In this document: one piece after another, positions 9,618 to 48,481 of the stretch | Layout: the number at the start of each line of letters is the position of its first letter | Numbering within the stretch: position 1 is the stretch's first letter | DNA from: an uncultured bacterium | GTDB taxonomy: Bacteria > Fidelibacterota > Marinisomatia > Marinisomatales > JAHJCW01 | Assembly (NCBI GenBank): GCA_964634215.1 | Contig: CAZWKR010000006.1 | Coordinates: forward strand, 79,607 to 143,606 | Length of the DNA stretch: 64,000 bases | Reading direction: 5' to 3' | Position numbers and translations under genes: made by a program | The notes under the pieces: model-generated | What the model was told of the DNA's origin: nothing | The model's input: the letters and a program-made list of their open reading frames with translations, nothing else | Databases searched by the model: none

Positions 9618-12110
9618 TTATGCAGGCACACCTATCGCCGAATTATCGGATTTGGGTGTGATTTTTTTATTTTGTTTTTTTGCTCGTTTAGCTTCGGCTT
9701 TTTCTCGATCTTCTTTTAGAACCTTGATTGTGTGTTTAACTTCATTATCTGTGACATTTTTACGCATTTCATCAATATCTTTCATAGTTCGAGCCCACCT
9801 TTGTCCTTCAGCGGCACTTATCCATTCCATTTGTAAACGTTCTGGACGAATACCAAGTCTCTCCATTTTATCCCATAATTTTTCAACACGTTTTTGCGTC
9901 CAACGATTAGCATCAATGTAATGACAATCTGCAAAGTGACAGCCTGAGACAAGCACAATTGGTGCACCTTTTTCAAAGGCATGCAGTACAAAATCAGAAT
10001 CAACTCTACCACTGCACATCGTTCGGATAACCCTTTGAGATGTAGGATATTGCAATCTCGATAATCCTGCTAAATCAGCACCGGCGTATGAACACCAATT
10101 GCATGCAAATACTGTGACTTTATCCATTGGATTTTCATCTAAGATAGCATCAATCATAGTTGTGATTTGTGCATCCTCAAAATGTTTCATGGATAGTGCG
10201 TCAAAATTGCATTCTGCTGCACAAGTTCCGCATCCTTTACATAGAGCTTCTATCACTTCAGCAGGACTTCCGGCTTTTGCATCAGCTCCTTGAATAGCAT
10301 TGAACGGACAAACATTGGTGCAAATTCCGCAAGATGTACATAATTCGGTAAAGCATTCCGAGGTGATAGCTTCAATGTTTATCATATCCGAATTAAGCAA
10401 TACTTCTGCTCTAGCAACTGCGGCACTCGCTTGAGTTACACTGTCTTTTACATCTTTTGGAAATTCTGCGCAACCTGCAAAAAATACTCCACCTGTTGGT
10501 GCATCTACGGGTTTTAACTTTGGATGAGACTCCATAAAGAATCCATCTTCAGTTTTAGATAGAGTTAGCAGTTTTTGCACAGCTTCGGCATCACGTCTTG
10601 GAATAACTCCAACTGATAGAACTACCATATCAAAATTGTAATCTTTTACAGTATTTGCAACCGTGTCCTCTACAATTAGAGTGAGATTTTTTGTCTTTGG
10701 ATCCTCGAAGATCTCACCCGGTAGTCCTCGTATATATTGTACACCGGTTTTCTTACTTCTAATATATAAATCTTCAAATCCTTTTCCAAAAGCGCGAATA
10801 TCCATATAGAATACTGCAATTTCGGTATCCGGATAATGATCTTTTAACAATAAACTGTCCTTAACTGTATTCATGCAGCAAATATTACTACAATACGGAT
10901 TGCCGGTTTCTGAATGTGATCGTGAACCAACGCATTGAATGAAGGCAATCTTCTTGGGTACTTCTCTATCTGTTGGTCGGAAAAAATGTCCTTCCGTTGG
11001 ACCACCGGCAGAAATTAATCTTTCGAACTCCATGCTTGTGATGACATTTTCGTATTTGGTATAACCATATTCATCCATCTCGGTTGGATCGTAAACATCC
11101 ATTCCGGTAGCAACTATTACAGCACCAACATTGACTTCTATTATTTCATCCTTCATATCGAAATCGATACATTCTTTTTCACAAACATCCGCACATTTGC
11201 CGCATGCAATGGGATTATGTCCTAAACAATCATCATTATCTAAAATATAAACAGATGGAACTGCTTGGGGAAACGGCATATATATCGCTTTGCGAGATGA
11301 AAAACCCTGTTGGAATTCATCAGCTACAGCGACAGGGCAAACCTTTTCACATTCACCACACGCGTTGCAAACTGTTTCATCTACAAATCGTGCTTTTTTG
11401 CGAATTTTTACATTAAAATTACCGATATAACCGCTTACTTCTTCTACTTCGCTATATGTGTATAAATTAACATTGGGATGTCGACCGACATCCATCATTT
11501 TTGGTCCGAGTATTCATATGGAACAATCCATAGTGGGATAGGTCTTGTCTAATGTTGCCATTAGCCCACCAATGGATGCCTCCTTCTCAACCAAATTTAC
11601 TTTATAACCTGCATCTGCCAAATCAAGGGCGGACTGAATACCCGCCACACCACCGCCAATAACAAGAACTTCTTTGGTCATTGGTACTTTCGATTCTGTT
11701 TGCTCTTCCAATAATCTCGCTCTAGCGACCGATGACTTGACAATGTCTTTAGCTTTTTCAGTTGCACCATCATAATCATCTAAATGTACCCAACTGCAAT
11801 GCTCACGTATATTGGCCATTTCCATTAGATATGGATTTAATCCCGCCTCTTCAACACAATTGCGAAAAGTAGGTTCATGCATCCGGGGAGAGCAAGAGGC
11901 CACAACTACACGATTTAAATTGTGCTCTTTGATATATTTTTTTATTTCTTGTTGGCCGGGTTCTGCGCATGTATACTTATTTACAATTGAGCACACAACA
12001 TTAGGAAGTGTTTCTGCATGTTTAGCGACCTCTTGACAATCAAGCGATCCTGCAATATTACTTCCGCATTCGCAAACAAATACTCCTACACGTAAATCGT
12101 TTTCACTCAT
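9618..12110 (-). CDS. hdrA: HdrA-like flavoprotein fused to MvhD domain; selenocysteine-containing (in-frame UGA at 11514-11516)
   Basis: ORFs 11514..12110 and 9618..11498 share one frame (2493 nt). Read-through gives 'LDKTYPTMDCSI-U-ILGPKMMDVGRHPNV'. Also present: FAD motif 'VIGGGVAGIQSALDLA', an inserted ferredoxin 'CNACGECEKVCP', a C-terminal ferredoxin 'CTSCGICTNVCP'/'CKGCGTCAAEC', and MvhD 'FACNWCSYAGADLAG...MCSGRV...VSGCHFADCHY'. Confidence 0.8.
11476..11493 (-). promoter_or_regulatory. candidate bacterial SECIS hairpin for hdrA UGA
   Basis: Minus-strand RNA GGAUGUC-GGUC-GACAUCC: a perfect 7-bp stem with a GGUC loop, starting 20 nt 3' of the UGA. Confidence 0.6.
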
Positions 12111-25776: not shown

Positions 25777-25800
25777 AATAATGACCGGGTGGTCATTATT
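25777..25800. promoter_or_regulatory. perfect 10-4-10 palindrome: HNH-gene terminator and/or TetR operator
   Basis: AATAATGACC-GGGT-GGTCATTATT. It lies 36 nt after the HNH stop and 16 nt upstream of the TetR start. Confidence 0.45.
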
Positions 25801-25835
25801 TAATTATAGAAGTTTGTAAAAGAGTTAAAATTATT

Positions 25836-26738
25836 TTAGATAGTTAGGAATTTATTATAACGTTTACTTAATCTATCTTTATCTGGCCAATCAGATTTGT
25901 TGTGTGGTAAAACCAACTTCTTATTATTCAGGGATTGTAATCCATATTTTAGCATTGGTCCATCAATTTCTTCTAAAATATCTTTTCTAACATTTATATT
26001 ATAATCTGGTGAAACACCAAGTATGTTTGTATCAAATGCAGCATGATGAATTTTACAAAGTGCTAATCCATTTAATACAATAGGTTGTCCGTCCTCTTCA
26101 TTGTCGGGAATGATATGAGCAGCATCAAGTAATTCACGGTGTTTTAAGGTACAAAATGTACATTGTTCATTATATGCACTTAGTACTCTTTCACGAAATG
26201 ATCTTTGATGAATTCTTTGTTTAATTTGTGCAGTGAGATATGATCTTCTATATTCAGCCTGAGCTTCCCTGATAGCATTTACATTTGTATCATTAGCTTG
26301 TATCATGTTATCGACAGCAACTAGAAATGAAAGATTATTTCTATCCTCATTTATCAAATATACAGGCCAAGTTACTAAGTATCTATTTATTTCTATTTGA
26401 TGGAAATATATCAATGGAATTTTTTGATTCATTAAATTACGCAAACCAACGTTTGCATAATGATATGGATCATTACCGCGGTATTTATAAATAAAAATTC
26501 CATTGTCCTCATCTGAATCATCATATGGACCATTTATTATTGTGGTAATTGAGATTGGTAATTCAAGTAACTTGGGTTTCCAAATTCCCTGTGGTCCAAT
26601 CAAAGTAACTCGCTGATTATTATGATAAAAACCATGTGATAGAATATCACGAGATAATACATCACCATACAAATTTGTTTGTTCTTTTAGCCAATCAAAT
26701 GCAGCTAATCTAATTGTGCTATCGGGTATATTAGCCAT
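25836..26738 (-). CDS. HNH endonuclease with N-terminal putative modified-DNA reader domain (type IV restriction-like)
   Basis: 300 aa. HNH region 'CTFCTLKHRELLDAAHIIPD...NGLALCKIHHAAFD'. N-terminal 'YKYRGNDPYHYANVGLRNLMNQKIPLIYFHQ' resembles COG3440-type nucleases (from memory). Confidence 0.7.
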   Translation of the reverse strand: MANIPDSTIRLAAFDWLKEQTNLYGDVLSRDILSHGFYHNNQRVTLIGPQGIWKPKLLELPISITTIINGPYDDSDEDNGIFIYKYRGNDPYHYANVGLRNLMNQKIPLIYFHQIEINRYLVTWPVYLINEDRNNLSFLVAVDNMIQANDTNVNAIREAQAEYRRSYLTAQIKQRIHQRSFRERVLSAYNEQCTFCTLKHRELLDAAHIIPDNEEDGQPIVLNGLALCKIHHAAFDTNILGVSPDYNINVRKDILEEIDGPMLKYGLQSLNNKKLVLPHNKSDWPDKDRLSKRYNKFLTI

Positions 26739-26856
26739 ACAATAAAATATAATTCAATTGTTAGACTTTACAATGAATTAATCAACATCTTTGTCTTGAA
26801 CAAGTCCCGTTGCGTCCACTGCTAAATATTTTCATTATACCGAAGATAAATCGACT

Positions 26857-27327
26857 TTACTTCTCTGCCCATTTCTTTAATTCGCGTTTAATTTTCTTTT
26901 CAATTTTTTCCCCAATTTCTTCCCAGTCTTTATCTTTATGTTCAGATTCATCAAGCCAACTCTTAATGCCTGTACGAACTTTCTCTTCAACTTTTACACC
27001 AATTTCTTCCCATTCTTTTTCTTTTGGACTTTTTTTCTTACAAACGGTCCCTTTGCAGCTACCGCTAAATATTGCCATTGCTCCGAATAGGAATCCAAAG
27101 TTGTACCAACCGCCATTATTATGAACTTCATAAATGGAAATAGTATCTTTGAATAATGATATTATGAAAGTGATAGGTGAGATTAGCCCATGCCATAGAC
27201 CTTGCCAAAATCCGGCGACTTCGCCTTCTTTGGCAACAGTATTTACTAATTCGTTTGCGCCCGCTGTACAAGCTGCTAAAATCAATAAACCAAATGATAA
27301 TAAAATTAATAGGGTCTTTTTATTCAT
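26857..27327 (-). CDS. lipoprotein / membrane protein with charged C-terminal repeat, unknown function
   Basis: 156 aa. Lipobox 'LLILAAC', hydrophobic 'GLWHGLISPITFIISLF', duplicated 'K-x-K-x-WEEIG-x-K-x-E-x-K' motif. Confidence 0.5.
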   Translation of the reverse strand: MNKKTLLILLSFGLLILAACTAGANELVNTVAKEGEVAGFWQGLWHGLISPITFIISLFKDTISIYEVHNNGGWYNFGFLFGAMAIFSGSCKGTVCKKKSPKEKEWEEIGVKVEEKVRTGIKSWLDESEHKDKDWEEIGEKIEKKIKRELKKWAEK

Positions 27328-27408
27328 GATATCCTCCTAGCTAATTAATAAATATTTTTAAACTAGATTACTTAATAATCTTTCCAATAATTCTTTGAAT
27401 TTAGTGAT

Positions 27409-28380
27409 TTATTTTCCTAATGGTCGTTTCTTTATCATTCCACCTTTTGTATCCTTTATACTATTCATTATGATAAATGCATCAGGGTCAATTTTGTCAA
27501 TTTCCGTGCGTAGTCTTGCAATTTCTAATCTTGTGATAACAATATAAATAATGTCAATTTTTTTTAAGTTATCTCCTCGTTTCCCAAATCCGCCTTTACC
27601 TGAATAAACGGTAACCCCTCTTCCTAACTTTTCAGTAATCATTAACCTTATTTCTTCGCTCTCATCAGATATAATTGTTATACCGGTGTATTCTTCAATA
27701 CCTTCAATAACAAAATCGACAGTTTTTGAAGCAGCCATATATGTTAGAATTGCATATAAAGCAATTTCAACTGATAGGATGTAACCTGCGAATAAGAATA
27801 TAATAATGTTAAATATTAATATTATATCACCAATGGTCAGCCCTGTCTTTTTGCTCAAATAAATTGCTAATACTTCAGTTCCATCTATTACAGCGCCACC
27901 GCGAATTGCCATTCCTATTCCCGCTCCTAAGAAGAAACCGCCAAAAACAGCGATAAGTAATTTGTCTGTAGTAACTACAGGATAAGGTATGAAGTGAACA
28001 ACTAATGCAAGTCCAATTATTGCTAAAATACTTTTAATGGCAAATTGCTTTCCTATTTGCGAAGATCCAAGAATGAGAAATGGTAAATTGATTATCACAA
28101 TAAGAATGGATAATGATACACCGGTTATTTCTGCTGTTAATAGAGAAACACCCATTGCACCGCCATCAATAAACGAATTAGGTATTAAAAATCCTTTTAG
28201 TCCAAAACCAGCTGAAACAATACCAATTAAGATAAAAATAGTATCTCTGACAATATGAGTAATGCTAACTTTTAGAATTTCAACTTCGCTTGATAAGTTT
28301 CTATCATCGGTCTGTTTATTCTGTTTTTTAAATCGATGTTTCACTGTATCCGAAATTATTTGTTGAAAAAATGGATTCAT
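27409..28380 (-). CDS. YitT-family membrane protein (DUF2179 C-terminal domain)
   Basis: 323 aa. Multiple TM segments plus C-terminal 'LGRGVTVYSGKGGFG...IVITRLE'. Confidence 0.8.
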   Translation of the reverse strand: MNPFFQQIISDTVKHRFKKQNKQTDDRNLSSEVEILKVSITHIVRDTIFILIGIVSAGFGLKGFLIPNSFIDGGAMGVSLLTAEITGVSLSILIVIINLPFLILGSSQIGKQFAIKSILAIIGLALVVHFIPYPVVTTDKLLIAVFGGFFLGAGIGMAIRGGAVIDGTEVLAIYLSKKTGLTIGDIILIFNIIIFLFAGYILSVEIALYAILTYMAASKTVDFVIEGIEEYTGITIISDESEEIRLMITEKLGRGVTVYSGKGGFGKRGDNLKKIDIIYIVITRLEIARLRTEIDKIDPDAFIIMNSIKDTKGGMIKKRPLGK

Positions 28381-28445
28381 ATTGCTTGTTTTAAAATATT
28401 TATATCAATAGTACACAACCCAATAAATTTTACTTTATCACTGTT

Positions 28446-29492
28446 TTATACATAAATCCCAAATTTATCTTTTTCTACAATCTCCCCAATAACTACCGCT
28501 TTTATTTCTGATAATTCATTGAATTTAGTGATATACTTTTCTGCTTTTTCGGTAGGAATGGAAATAAGCAATCCGCCGGAAGTCTGAGCATCTGCTAGTA
28601 ATAGTTTATCTATGTCAGTCGGGTGCTCACCAAACTGAACTTTGTCTTTAACAAATTTCAAATTCCGCTTAGTTCCGCCCGGTACAATACCCTTTTCCGC
28701 AAGTTCTTTTACCGAAGGCAAAAATGGTAGTGCATGGTAGTCAATTTTGGCGGAAACACAGCTTGCTTCACACATTTCCGATAAATGCCCTAGCAAACCA
28801 AAACCGGTTACATCGGTGGCGGAATTCACGCCGATTATTGTCATTATATCAGCAGCAAATTTGTTAAGCGTAGCCATAGATTCAGCCGATTTTGCCATTG
28901 CAATTTTATCAGCAATTCCGCGTTTTACGGCTGTAGCAATTATTCCTGTACCAAGCGGTTTTGTGAGTATTAATTTATCGCCAGCTTGAGCGTTGCTGTT
29001 GGTTATCAAATTATCTTCTTCAACTTCACCGGTTACAACTAATCCGTATTTTGGCTCGGGGTCGTCAATGCTATGCCCACCAACAATTGAAATACCGGCT
29101 TCATCAGCTTTGTCAATGCCACCCTGTAAAATCTTTGATAAGTCCGATTTCGGTAAAGTATTTATCGGAAAACCGATTATGTTTAATGCAAATAGTGGAG
29201 TAGCTCCCATCGCATAAATATCCGATAAAGAATTAGCAGCTGCAATTTGACCAAATGTATACGGATCATCATCGATTGGCGTGAAAAAATCAACAGTTTG
29301 AACGAGCAATCTACCATTGCTTAGGCGTACCACTGCTGCGTCATCTTTATCATCATATCCGACGAGGATGCGGTCATCTTTTTTCGATTTTAGCTTACCC
29401 AAAACTTGAGCAAGGTCCTCAGGACCTATTTTACAAGCTCAACCGGAGCCGTGGGTAAGTGTCGTTAGTCGTATTTTTTCTTTTTTGTCCAT
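28446..29492 (-). CDS. selD: selenide, water dikinase SelD, selenocysteine-containing (UGA at 29439-29441)
   Basis: The track ORF starts at an internal TTG (29402). Upstream and in frame: ATG(29490-29492) MDKKEKIRLTTLTHGSG-U-ACKIGPEDLAQVLGKLKS.... This matches the SelD 'RLT....G(C/U)GCK' N-terminus. Also 'DFFTPIDDDPYTFGQIAAANSLSDIYAMGA'. Confidence 0.85.
29413..29427 (-). promoter_or_regulatory. candidate SECIS hairpin for selD UGA
   Basis: Minus-strand RNA AGGUCC-UGA-GGACCU begins 11 nt 3' of the UGA. A possible lower stem CUUG...CAAG flanks it. Confidence 0.45.
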
Positions 29493-29546: not shown

Positions 29547-30350
29547 CTATACGTTTTTAACGAGCTGTTTTATATCATCAATACTCGTGATCTTTTTATC
29601 CGCTAAATATTCAAGATGAATAGATTTGAAGATTGAACTTATTTGAATATTCTCCACATAATCTTTTAACGATATAGGAATATGATTCGTTTTATATATT
29701 AATAGGTCAAATGGAAAACTGACTTCAGTAGGTTTCAATGTGGATAACGTATACTGATTTTCGTATAATTCATTGCGTCGTAACTGAATTTTTTTAATGT
29801 CAATATCATCGTCAAAGTACCATGGCGAAACTACATCTGCAATTGATTTTAGATAATCATAGCCTTCCTGAAAATGTTCTAAAAAATAATTAGTGTATTT
29901 ACCATGTCCAAGATCTGAGTATAATGTTTCCTTAATCGATTTATTCATTTTTTCTAGATATAATTTCCACATTGTAAAATGTGAACGATATAAAAAATAT
30001 CCAAATGATGTTCGAAATGAATTTGGTGCTGTAAAAAATGATTTTACTTCATATGATTTTTTCTTTAATTCGTTTCTAAAGTCATTGGGAAATAAATGAA
30101 TTGAAAATGGAATTACTGATATGTCATTTTTTATAAAATCAGATGGTATATCCAATTCTTGAATATTTAAAGTATATAATCTTTCCAATCCGCCAATCTT
30201 TAATTCTATAAAAGCTCCCATATCGCTTATTTTAATTAGATTATTAAGCGCTTTATCAAATGCCGGAAGGGTAGTAATTGATGGTATACTTGCGTGCTTG
30301 GAAAGCTCAGGGAATAGGGCAATTTGTCTAGGGTCTGTTTGCTCTTGCAT
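29547..30350 (-). CDS. hypothetical protein, no recognisable domain
   Basis: 267-aa ORF with no competing ORF of similar size. 54 nt upstream of selD on the same strand. No motif recognised. Confidence 0.5.
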   Translation of the reverse strand: MQEQTDPRQIALFPELSKHASIPSITTLPAFDKALNNLIKISDMGAFIELKIGGLERLYTLNIQELDIPSDFIKNDISVIPFSIHLFPNDFRNELKKKSYEVKSFFTAPNSFRTSFGYFLYRSHFTMWKLYLEKMNKSIKETLYSDLGHGKYTNYFLEHFQEGYDYLKSIADVVSPWYFDDDIDIKKIQLRRNELYENQYTLSTLKPTEVSFPFDLLIYKTNHIPISLKDYVENIQISSIFKSIHLEYLADKKITSIDDIKQLVKNV

Positions 30351-47334: not shown

Positions 47335-47512
47335 GCTCGGATTAATGTTAATAATTACTAAACTAATATTTGAAAGATTTTGTAATAATCAAATTGGTTT
47401 TTACGAGAATAAAAGTTAAACTTACAGTTAATAGAATGGGGTACTACGATTGTTTATAAATGTATTACTCAAGTTGGATATTTTAAAACTTTGAAAAAAT
47501 TGGTATAATATC

Positions 47513-48481
47513 GTGAAATTTATCTATTTAATGGAGAATGAGCGTTCAGTATCTCCACATATAAAACCTGTAATTAAAGAACGAATTAAACCATTCATTC
47601 CACCTCGTCCATCAAGGCCAATAAAGTATATTCCTCGGGTTGAAAAAGGTGTAAGGGATTATTGTAAACTATTGGGATTAACTCGAGAACCATTTTCTAT
47701 GGCTCCTGAACCTGATTTCTTTTATCAATCCAAACAGCATCGAGAGTGTCTTAATCGATTGGAAATTTCATTACGACTTAATCGTGGTTTGCATGTTGTA
47801 GCCGGTGGTATAGGTACCGGTAAAACTGCTATATCTAGATTATTGTTGGATCGATTTACTGACCATGAGGGCGATTATACATTCTTTTTAATTCTCAATC
47901 CTACTTGGCGCAACAATCAAGAATTCTTAATGCATCTTAAAAAGATGTTTGATATCCGCGATGAATCAAATCTAATTACTGACATGATGAATCAAATCGA
48001 ACATTTTTTAATTGATTATACTACAAAATACAGTAAGCGAATTGTGATGATTATTGACGAGGGACAAAAGATGGGACCAAATCAGCTTGAAATCGTTCGA
48101 TCTTTGCTAAATTTTGAAACAAATAGTATGAAGCTTATTCAATTTGGTATCTTTGCCCAGCCAGAATTTATTGATACCCTAAATGCTATGGAAAATTTTA
48201 AAGATCGAATTACATATATGTTTAATTTAAACAATATGGATGATGAAGATACAAGAGGTTTAATTGACCATCGACTAAGTATAGCAGGCTTGCCTAAAGA
48301 AAGAGAGCTATTTACTGAAAATGCAAAAAACCTAATTTATAAATATACAAGAGGATTCCCTCGAAAGATTATAGTCACTTGCCACAATTTACTCATCGAT
48401 ATGCTAATCACAGGTAAATCAAAAGTTGATGCTGATTTAGTTTTTAAATTTACTCAGCAAAATAATTTGATATATGAGTAA
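47513..48481 (+). CDS. ExeA/GspA/MshM-like AAA ATPase
   Basis: 322 aa. Walker A 'GGIGTGKTAISR', Walker B 'VMIIDEGQ'. The GTG start is uncertain (alternative ATG at 47531). Confidence 0.75.
   Translation: MKFIYLMENERSVSPHIKPVIKERIKPFIPPRPSRPIKYIPRVEKGVRDYCKLLGLTREPFSMAPEPDFFYQSKQHRECLNRLEISLRLNRGLHVVAGGIGTGKTAISRLLLDRFTDHEGDYTFFLILNPTWRNNQEFLMHLKKMFDIRDESNLITDMMNQIEHFLIDYTTKYSKRIVMIIDEGQKMGPNQLEIVRSLLNFETNSMKLIQFGIFAQPEFIDTLNAMENFKDRITYMFNLNNMDDEDTRGLIDHRLSIAGLPKERELFTENAKNLIYKYTRGFPRKIIVTCHNLLIDMLITGKSKVDADLVFKFTQQNNLIYE

Follow-up and report, generated by a model that had tools for sequence, protein, structure and literature searches.

A probable Sec-type selD gene, truncated at an internal TTG by gene callers, in a 64-kb stretch of bacterial DNA

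Description

Here, we describe a full-length selD gene on the minus strand of a 64-kb stretch of bacterial DNA (the window), which very probably encodes a 348-residue SelD with the catalytic loop HGSG-U-ACK, in which the equivalent of E. coli Cys17 is Sec, specified by an in-frame UGA that is followed by candidate SelB-recruiting stem-loops (coordinates of all features in Table 1). In the proposed mechanism, a stem-loop just 3' of the UGA would recruit SelB with Sec-tRNA(Sec) during translation, and SelB would insert Sec at the UGA in place of termination; the candidate stem-loops for SelB lie at nt 15-29 and nt 30-46, numbered here and below from the U of UGA. ORF finders read the UGA as a terminator and begin the gene anew at an internal TTG, giving a 318-residue product. 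Among the selenoprotein families of prokaryotes, SelD is the second most widespread and carries Sec in its N-terminal loop (PMC1794560, PMC13188914), and FdhA and SelD have been called the most widespread bacterial selenoproteins (Zhang et al. 2006, PMC1794560).

Table 1. Positions of the selD and hdrA features in the window
Feature	Position	Strand	Basis or remark
Full selD coding sequence	28446..29492	(-)	348 residues including Sec18, plus stop codon; translation, TIGR00476, 3u0o
True ATG start	29490..29492	(-)	ATG shared by clade loci; coding-type conservation starts at the ATG
UGA codon, residue 18, equivalent of E. coli Cys17	29439..29441	(-)	alignment, clade invariance, cross-phylum TGA
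Internal TTG (Leu31), false start of ORF and gene callers	29400..29402	(-)	ORF list, P0001
Hairpin 1, AGGUCC-UGA-GGACCU, nt 15-29	29413..29427	(-)	fits bSECIS model
Extended stem-loop, lower stem enclosing hairpin 1	29402..29440	(-)	takes in the G and A of UGA
Hairpin 2, UGCUCAA-GUU-UUGGGUA, nt 30-46	29396..29412	(-)	phylum-wide conserved SECIS candidate
hdrA-mvhD fusion gene, in-frame TGA at 11514-11516	9618..12110	(-)	candidate selenoprotein; 5odc_A alignment
SECIS-like hairpin of hdrA, GGAUGUC-GGUC-GACAUCC	11476..11493	(-)	fits bSECIS model

Results

The selD reading frame runs from the ATG through 17 codons, the TGA and 330 codons to a TAA (28448-28446), in total 1047 nt or 349 codons counting the stop, and its translation around the TGA is MDKKEKIRLTTLTHGSG*ACKIGPEDLAQVLGKLKS..., where MDKKEKIRLTTLTHGSG represents the 17 codons before the TGA. 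The first 30 codons are lost in the ORF track, in which the gene begins at TTG 29402 and the 318-residue product is without the catalytic loop. An earlier sequence-only reading of this DNA had placed the true N-terminus upstream of that TTG, at an in-frame ATG that gives 1047 nt in total, and its coordinates are all correct on the minus strand. Its naming of the gene as selD also holds. Against the NCBIfam SelD equivalog TIGR00476, whose cut-off is 125, the 348-residue product reaches 408.6 bits; residues 8-316 map to profile positions 1-310 of 311, and since the match starts at profile position 1, the piece upstream of the TGA is part of the SelD family model. The best solved-structure match is E. 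coli SelD 3u0o (E = 4e-88, residues 5-339), where IRLTTLTHGSG-U-ACKIGP aligns with IRLTQYSHGAG-C-GCKISP and U18, C20 and K21 correspond to Cys17, Cys19 and Lys20. This alignment puts the UGA at the catalytic Cys17 position of the glycine-rich N-terminal loop, as had been claimed, and the loop has both the catalytic Cys/Sec17 and the Lys20 positions that mark SelD (HGSG-U-ACK, against HGAG-C-GCK in E. coli). Homologues of the window's SelD carry PF00586 and PF02769 (AIRS, AIRS_C). The Aquifex aeolicus SelD structures 2yye and 2zod also align across the catalytic loop, with Cys at the UGA position, an engineered substitute for the native Sec of A. aeolicus SelD.

Twelve related loci were retrieved as DNA, making with the window 13 clade loci and 11 distinct sequences that are 76-97% identical. 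The clade is probably Marinimicrobia; one of the roughly 100 nearest database homologues is labelled Candidatus Marinimicrobia. All 13 loci have the ATG, the 17 codons and the TGA, and the TGA is without variation among the 11 distinct sequences. Codons 7-17 upstream of the TGA all vary (11/11), synonymously in every case, with 2, 0 and 11 variable sites at the first, second and third codon positions, while in the intergenic stretch before the ATG variation affects 39 of 45 columns. The pattern of conservation around the TGA indicates purifying selection on a protein that is read through it.

A reading in which the 318-residue protein from TTG 29402 is the real product, and the upstream frame is non-coding, would agree with the start used by the ORF track and by about 100 database entries, but the codons upstream of the TGA change synonymously only, with no variable second position in 17 codons, and the TTG itself falls within the conserved hairpin 2 described below. 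We regard this reading as very improbable. A SelD product without the Cys17/Lys20 loop would be inactive, to judge by E. coli SelD mutants.

Conservation of the codon extends well beyond the clade. Of 159 informative SelD loci, drawn from many phyla, the Cys17 codon is TGA in 137 and TGT or TGC in 21, and the TGA-bearing loci share the context HG[AS]G-U-[AG]CK. Such an alignment with SelD orthologues had been proposed as a check, and it bears out the earlier statement that the Cys17 position is Sec in many of them. The TGA is likewise invariant across independent assemblies. What is found at selD is what is expected of a Sec-containing SelD gene: an in-frame UGA at the Cys17 codon, its conservation in orthologues and coding conservation on both sides.

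Many public records of this clade miss the catalytic N-terminus. The approximately 100 nearest database homologues are 316-320 aa long (76-100% identity, 91% query coverage) and truncated at the same point; one of them, P0001, starts MGKLKSKK at the internal TTG codon. The next tier of homologues (59-65% identity) appears to be "full-length", with HGSG-W-ACK at the Sec site. These proteins (P0102-P0110) were considered as Cys-type relatives and rejected, since the W is a TGA translated under another code. In the HGSGWACK entries, metagenome gene callers had applied a code with UGA as Trp, a quiet artefact.

An alternative code in which UGA is sense (Trp or Gly), or a TGA that is an assembly error or pseudogene lesion, would be in line with the W to which the homologous TGA is rendered in some ENA gene calls. 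Against these explanations, four genes of the window end at TGA, each in an ATGA overlap; the 64 kb contain just two credible in-frame TGAs, both aligned to Cys; and the selD TGA is unchanged across independent assemblies. We therefore find them scarcely credible, and retain Sec as the meaning of the selD UGA. Stop codons in the window are TAA (38), TAG (13) and, rarely, genuine TGA (4); the TGA stops are at gene ends 1549, 17065, 50891 and 56390, all overlapping the start of the next gene.

A scan of the 64 kb for reading frames split by TGA returned two credible cases, selD and hdrA, both with the TGA at a Cys of their homologues. A third split ORF, at 47450-48481(+) and encoding an AAA_22 ATPase, was rejected as a chance case: the 14 upstream codons look non-coding, the AAA_22 domain begins well downstream of the TGA, and no hairpin follows the TGA.

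The ORF track splits hdrA into ORFs of 198 aa (11514-12110) and 626 aa (9618-11498) in one frame. The sequence around the TGA reads ...TMDCSI*ILGPKM..., and in the alignment with the HdrA structure 5odc_A (E = 5e-247) the TGA falls on the second Cys of DCSICIL. Downstream, a hairpin of 7 bp with loop GGUC (-10.2 kcal/mol) stands at a spacing of 27 nt; a hairpin as good as this one follows only 0.23% of the TGAs in the window. HdrA is among the listed selenoprotein families (PMC1794560, PMC13188914), and the window's gene has the two features expected of its Sec-containing members, a UGA at the conserved Cys of DCSxCIL and a SECIS-like hairpin after it. It shares with known Sec-containing HdrA the TGA at the second Cys of that motif and the fusion to an MvhD-like domain, and differs in its setting, a non-methanogen in which it lies beside NfnB/GltD-like, CCG-domain and oxidoreductase genes.

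Because hdrA, a second gene of the window, carries TGA where Sec or Cys is known to occur, the genome very likely decodes Sec. Neither the 64-kb window, where the only tRNAs are tRNA-His and tRNA-Pro, nor 11 clade loci contain a tRNA-Sec. SelA, SelB and SelU had no match among the approximately 40 larger window ORFs that were screened against NCBIfam or Pfam, and selA and selB are not in the retrieved clade loci; selA, selB and selC presumably lie elsewhere in the genome.

For the RNA downstream of the UGA, we used the published bSECIS constraints: a loop of 3-9 nt, an upper stem of 4-16 bp, a G in the first two loop positions, 16-37 nt from UGA to loop, and an energy of at most -7.5 kcal/mol (PMC13188914). 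A SECIS prediction of this kind had been suggested for selD, and two hairpins of selD satisfy the model, as does the hdrA hairpin. The base rate is low: 1.1% of the 2,560 TGA triplets in this window of 34.7% GC have a hairpin within the constraints, and therefore a hairpin after the selD UGA is more than chance. Overall folding energy was tried as evidence for a SECIS and set aside as uninformative, with a post-UGA segment that folds just slightly more stably than its shuffles (z = -1.05 over 56 nt and -1.95 over 60 nt). Rfam at gathering thresholds finds two tRNAs alone in the window and no SECIS family, and a permissive local Rfam scan gives chance snoRNA-like matches and no SECIS family; the lack of an Rfam SECIS match is unsurprising, since bacterial SECIS elements are short and lineage-specific.

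Hairpin 1 is present exactly where the sequence-only reading had described it, beginning 11 nt after the UGA. It has 6 bp, a 3-nt loop UGA with G at position 2, a spacing of 17 nt and an energy of -7.9 kcal/mol. The possible CUUG/CAAG lower stem of that reading (29437-29434 with 29408-29405) was also found, as part of a 7-bp stem that pairs nt 2-8 with nt 34-40 and encloses hairpin 1; the resulting extended stem-loop is the minimum-energy fold of nt 1-50 (-14.2 kcal/mol). This lower stem is wholly paired in most clade loci, with a single compensatory swap of U6-A36 to A6-U36 in L163/L165, and across phyla it is 78% paired with little variation.

Hairpin 2 has 7 bp around a GUU loop, a spacing of 33 nt and an energy of -7.9 kcal/mol, and is extendable to 9 bp (29394-29414); its offset is given as 9 nt further downstream than hairpin 1, and G-U accounts for two of the seven pairs in the window. 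In an in-register alignment (A1) of 127 distinct Sec-type SelD post-UGA segments, 90% of its cells are paired, compensatory changes occur at five of the seven pairs, and the loop is a near-invariant G-U-N. RNAalifold gives hairpin 2 as the only helix in the consensus of these segments. The pair of nt 33 with nt 43 is GC in 77 genes, CG in 18, UA in 8 and AU in 4; nt 33, at the silent wobble position of an Ala codon, and nt 43, which opens codon 15 (Arg, Gly, Ser or Cys), covary, to an extent that, on this comparison, goes beyond what protein coding can explain. Two controls were made. In 18 Cys-type genes, the pairing of hairpin 2 amounts to 39%, and synonymous resampling from each gene's own codon usage leaves it 65 +/- 1.3% paired, with a maximum of 69% in 200 trials. 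The cross-phylum consensus of the hairpin, GGCGCAG-GUC-CUGCGCC, lies over the peptide LAQVLR, and the peptide there is variable in Cys-type selD. At this site, RNA structure seems to constrain the SelD protein sequence.

The clade-level conservation signals of the two hairpins are in conflict. The LAQVLG/LSQVLG subgroup, to which the window belongs, has an intact hairpin 2; in the LNHVLS subgroup (L083, L163, L165, L166) the hairpin is destroyed. This second subgroup keeps both the TGA and hairpin 1, and may represent SECIS turnover inside one clade.

One candidate for the functional SECIS is hairpin 1 enclosed by the lower stem, an element like that of E. coli fdhF which starts at the UGA and has its loop at nt 21-23. 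Besides fitting the bSECIS model, hairpin 1 retains its core in 12 of 13 clade loci, even in the subgroup that has lost hairpin 2, and the lower stem around it shows the compensatory swap; its position, starting at nt 15, matches that of the minimal fdhF SECIS. The hairpin described earlier is thus present and retained in most of the clade, but it is poorly conserved more widely: in the 127 Sec-type SelD genes, only 55% of cells in the hairpin 1 register are paired, and there is no covariation beyond shuffles. Moreover, its loop (UGA or GGA) is without the common G[G|U] pattern, and a GGUC loop is found in the hdrA hairpin, which the same SelB would read. That hairpin 1 is the functional element is a real possibility, to which we give a little less than even weight.

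With hairpin 2 as the element bound by SelB, hairpin 1 would be accessory or lineage-specific, and we hold this to be about evenly poised between true and false. The pairing, compensatory changes, loop and consensus fold across Sec-type genes argue for it, as do the absence of hairpin 2 from Cys-type genes, the excess of pairing over the expectation from codon usage, and the G-U that its loop has in common with the loop of the hdrA hairpin. Its loss in the LNHVLS subgroup, where the TGA is kept, argues against it, as do a spacing close to the upper limit of the model and the G-U pairs in the window. On these comparisons, hairpin 2 rates slightly ahead of hairpin 1 as the candidate SelB-binding element.

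The lower stem and hairpin 2 both need nt 34-40 and are mutually exclusive. The post-UGA region could accordingly be a conserved two-state RNA in place of a single SECIS, with the lower stem plus hairpin 1 competing for nt 34-40 with hairpins 1 and 2 in tandem, although we consider this unlikely. If it were true, a switch of this kind could adjust readthrough of the UGA and let SelD synthesis answer to selenium supply in many phyla, and the LNHVLS subgroup would have recently exchanged one SECIS hairpin for the other.

Discussion

Sec-containing SelD occurs in Haemophilus influenzae, Aquifex aeolicus and many Deltaproteobacteria and Clostridia. The window's selD has the same AIRS/AIRS_C fold, the same UGA at the Cys17 equivalent followed by x-C-K, and a hairpin inside the coding sequence; there is no structural difference from these genes, and the architecture is common to the 137 of 159 compared loci that carry TGA. 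The lineage is AT-rich, and the hairpins of the gene are therefore weaker (-7.9 kcal/mol, G-U pairs included). With E. coli SelD (3u0o), the window's SelD shares a full-length alignment and the pattern IRLT..HG.G.xCKI, whereas the E. coli gene has a Cys codon (TGC) at the catalytic position and requires no SECIS. Compared with the bSECIS model and the E. coli fdhF SECIS, the region here offers two adjacent candidates and a mutually exclusive lower stem, not one clear element.

A Sec-type selD of this sort is already known in kind and mechanism, and its correction is an ordinary annotation fix. What is particular to this case is the database artefact, in which clade entries are truncated or carry a false Trp. 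Neither the ORF track nor about 100 public entries of the clade contain the catalytic SelD N-terminus, and the truncated gene could lead pipelines to misjudge selenium use in a marine lineage, while the corrected selD and the UGA-containing hdrA together mark the organism as a Sec decoder.

No selenium-related gene adjoins selD in the surrounding gene order. On the same strand, 54 nt upstream of selD, is an ORF of 267 residues at 29547-30350(-) without a family match in Pfam or NCBIfam, and a gene of 266-267 aa is found at the same position in every retrieved clade locus. Gene order around selD is conserved in relatives, with korAB-like oxidoreductase and fumarase genes beyond the 267-residue gene. 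The segment downstream of selD (about 25800-28400) varies among the relatives L161, L163, L165, L166 and L168: several have restriction-modification genes there, for an N6/N4 methyltransferase and an MjaI-like endonuclease, and one has an MmeI-like enzyme. In the window, the segment encodes a YitT-family membrane protein together with one similar to a phosphorothioate-DNA-binding restriction endonuclease. This segment looks like a small variable defence islet.
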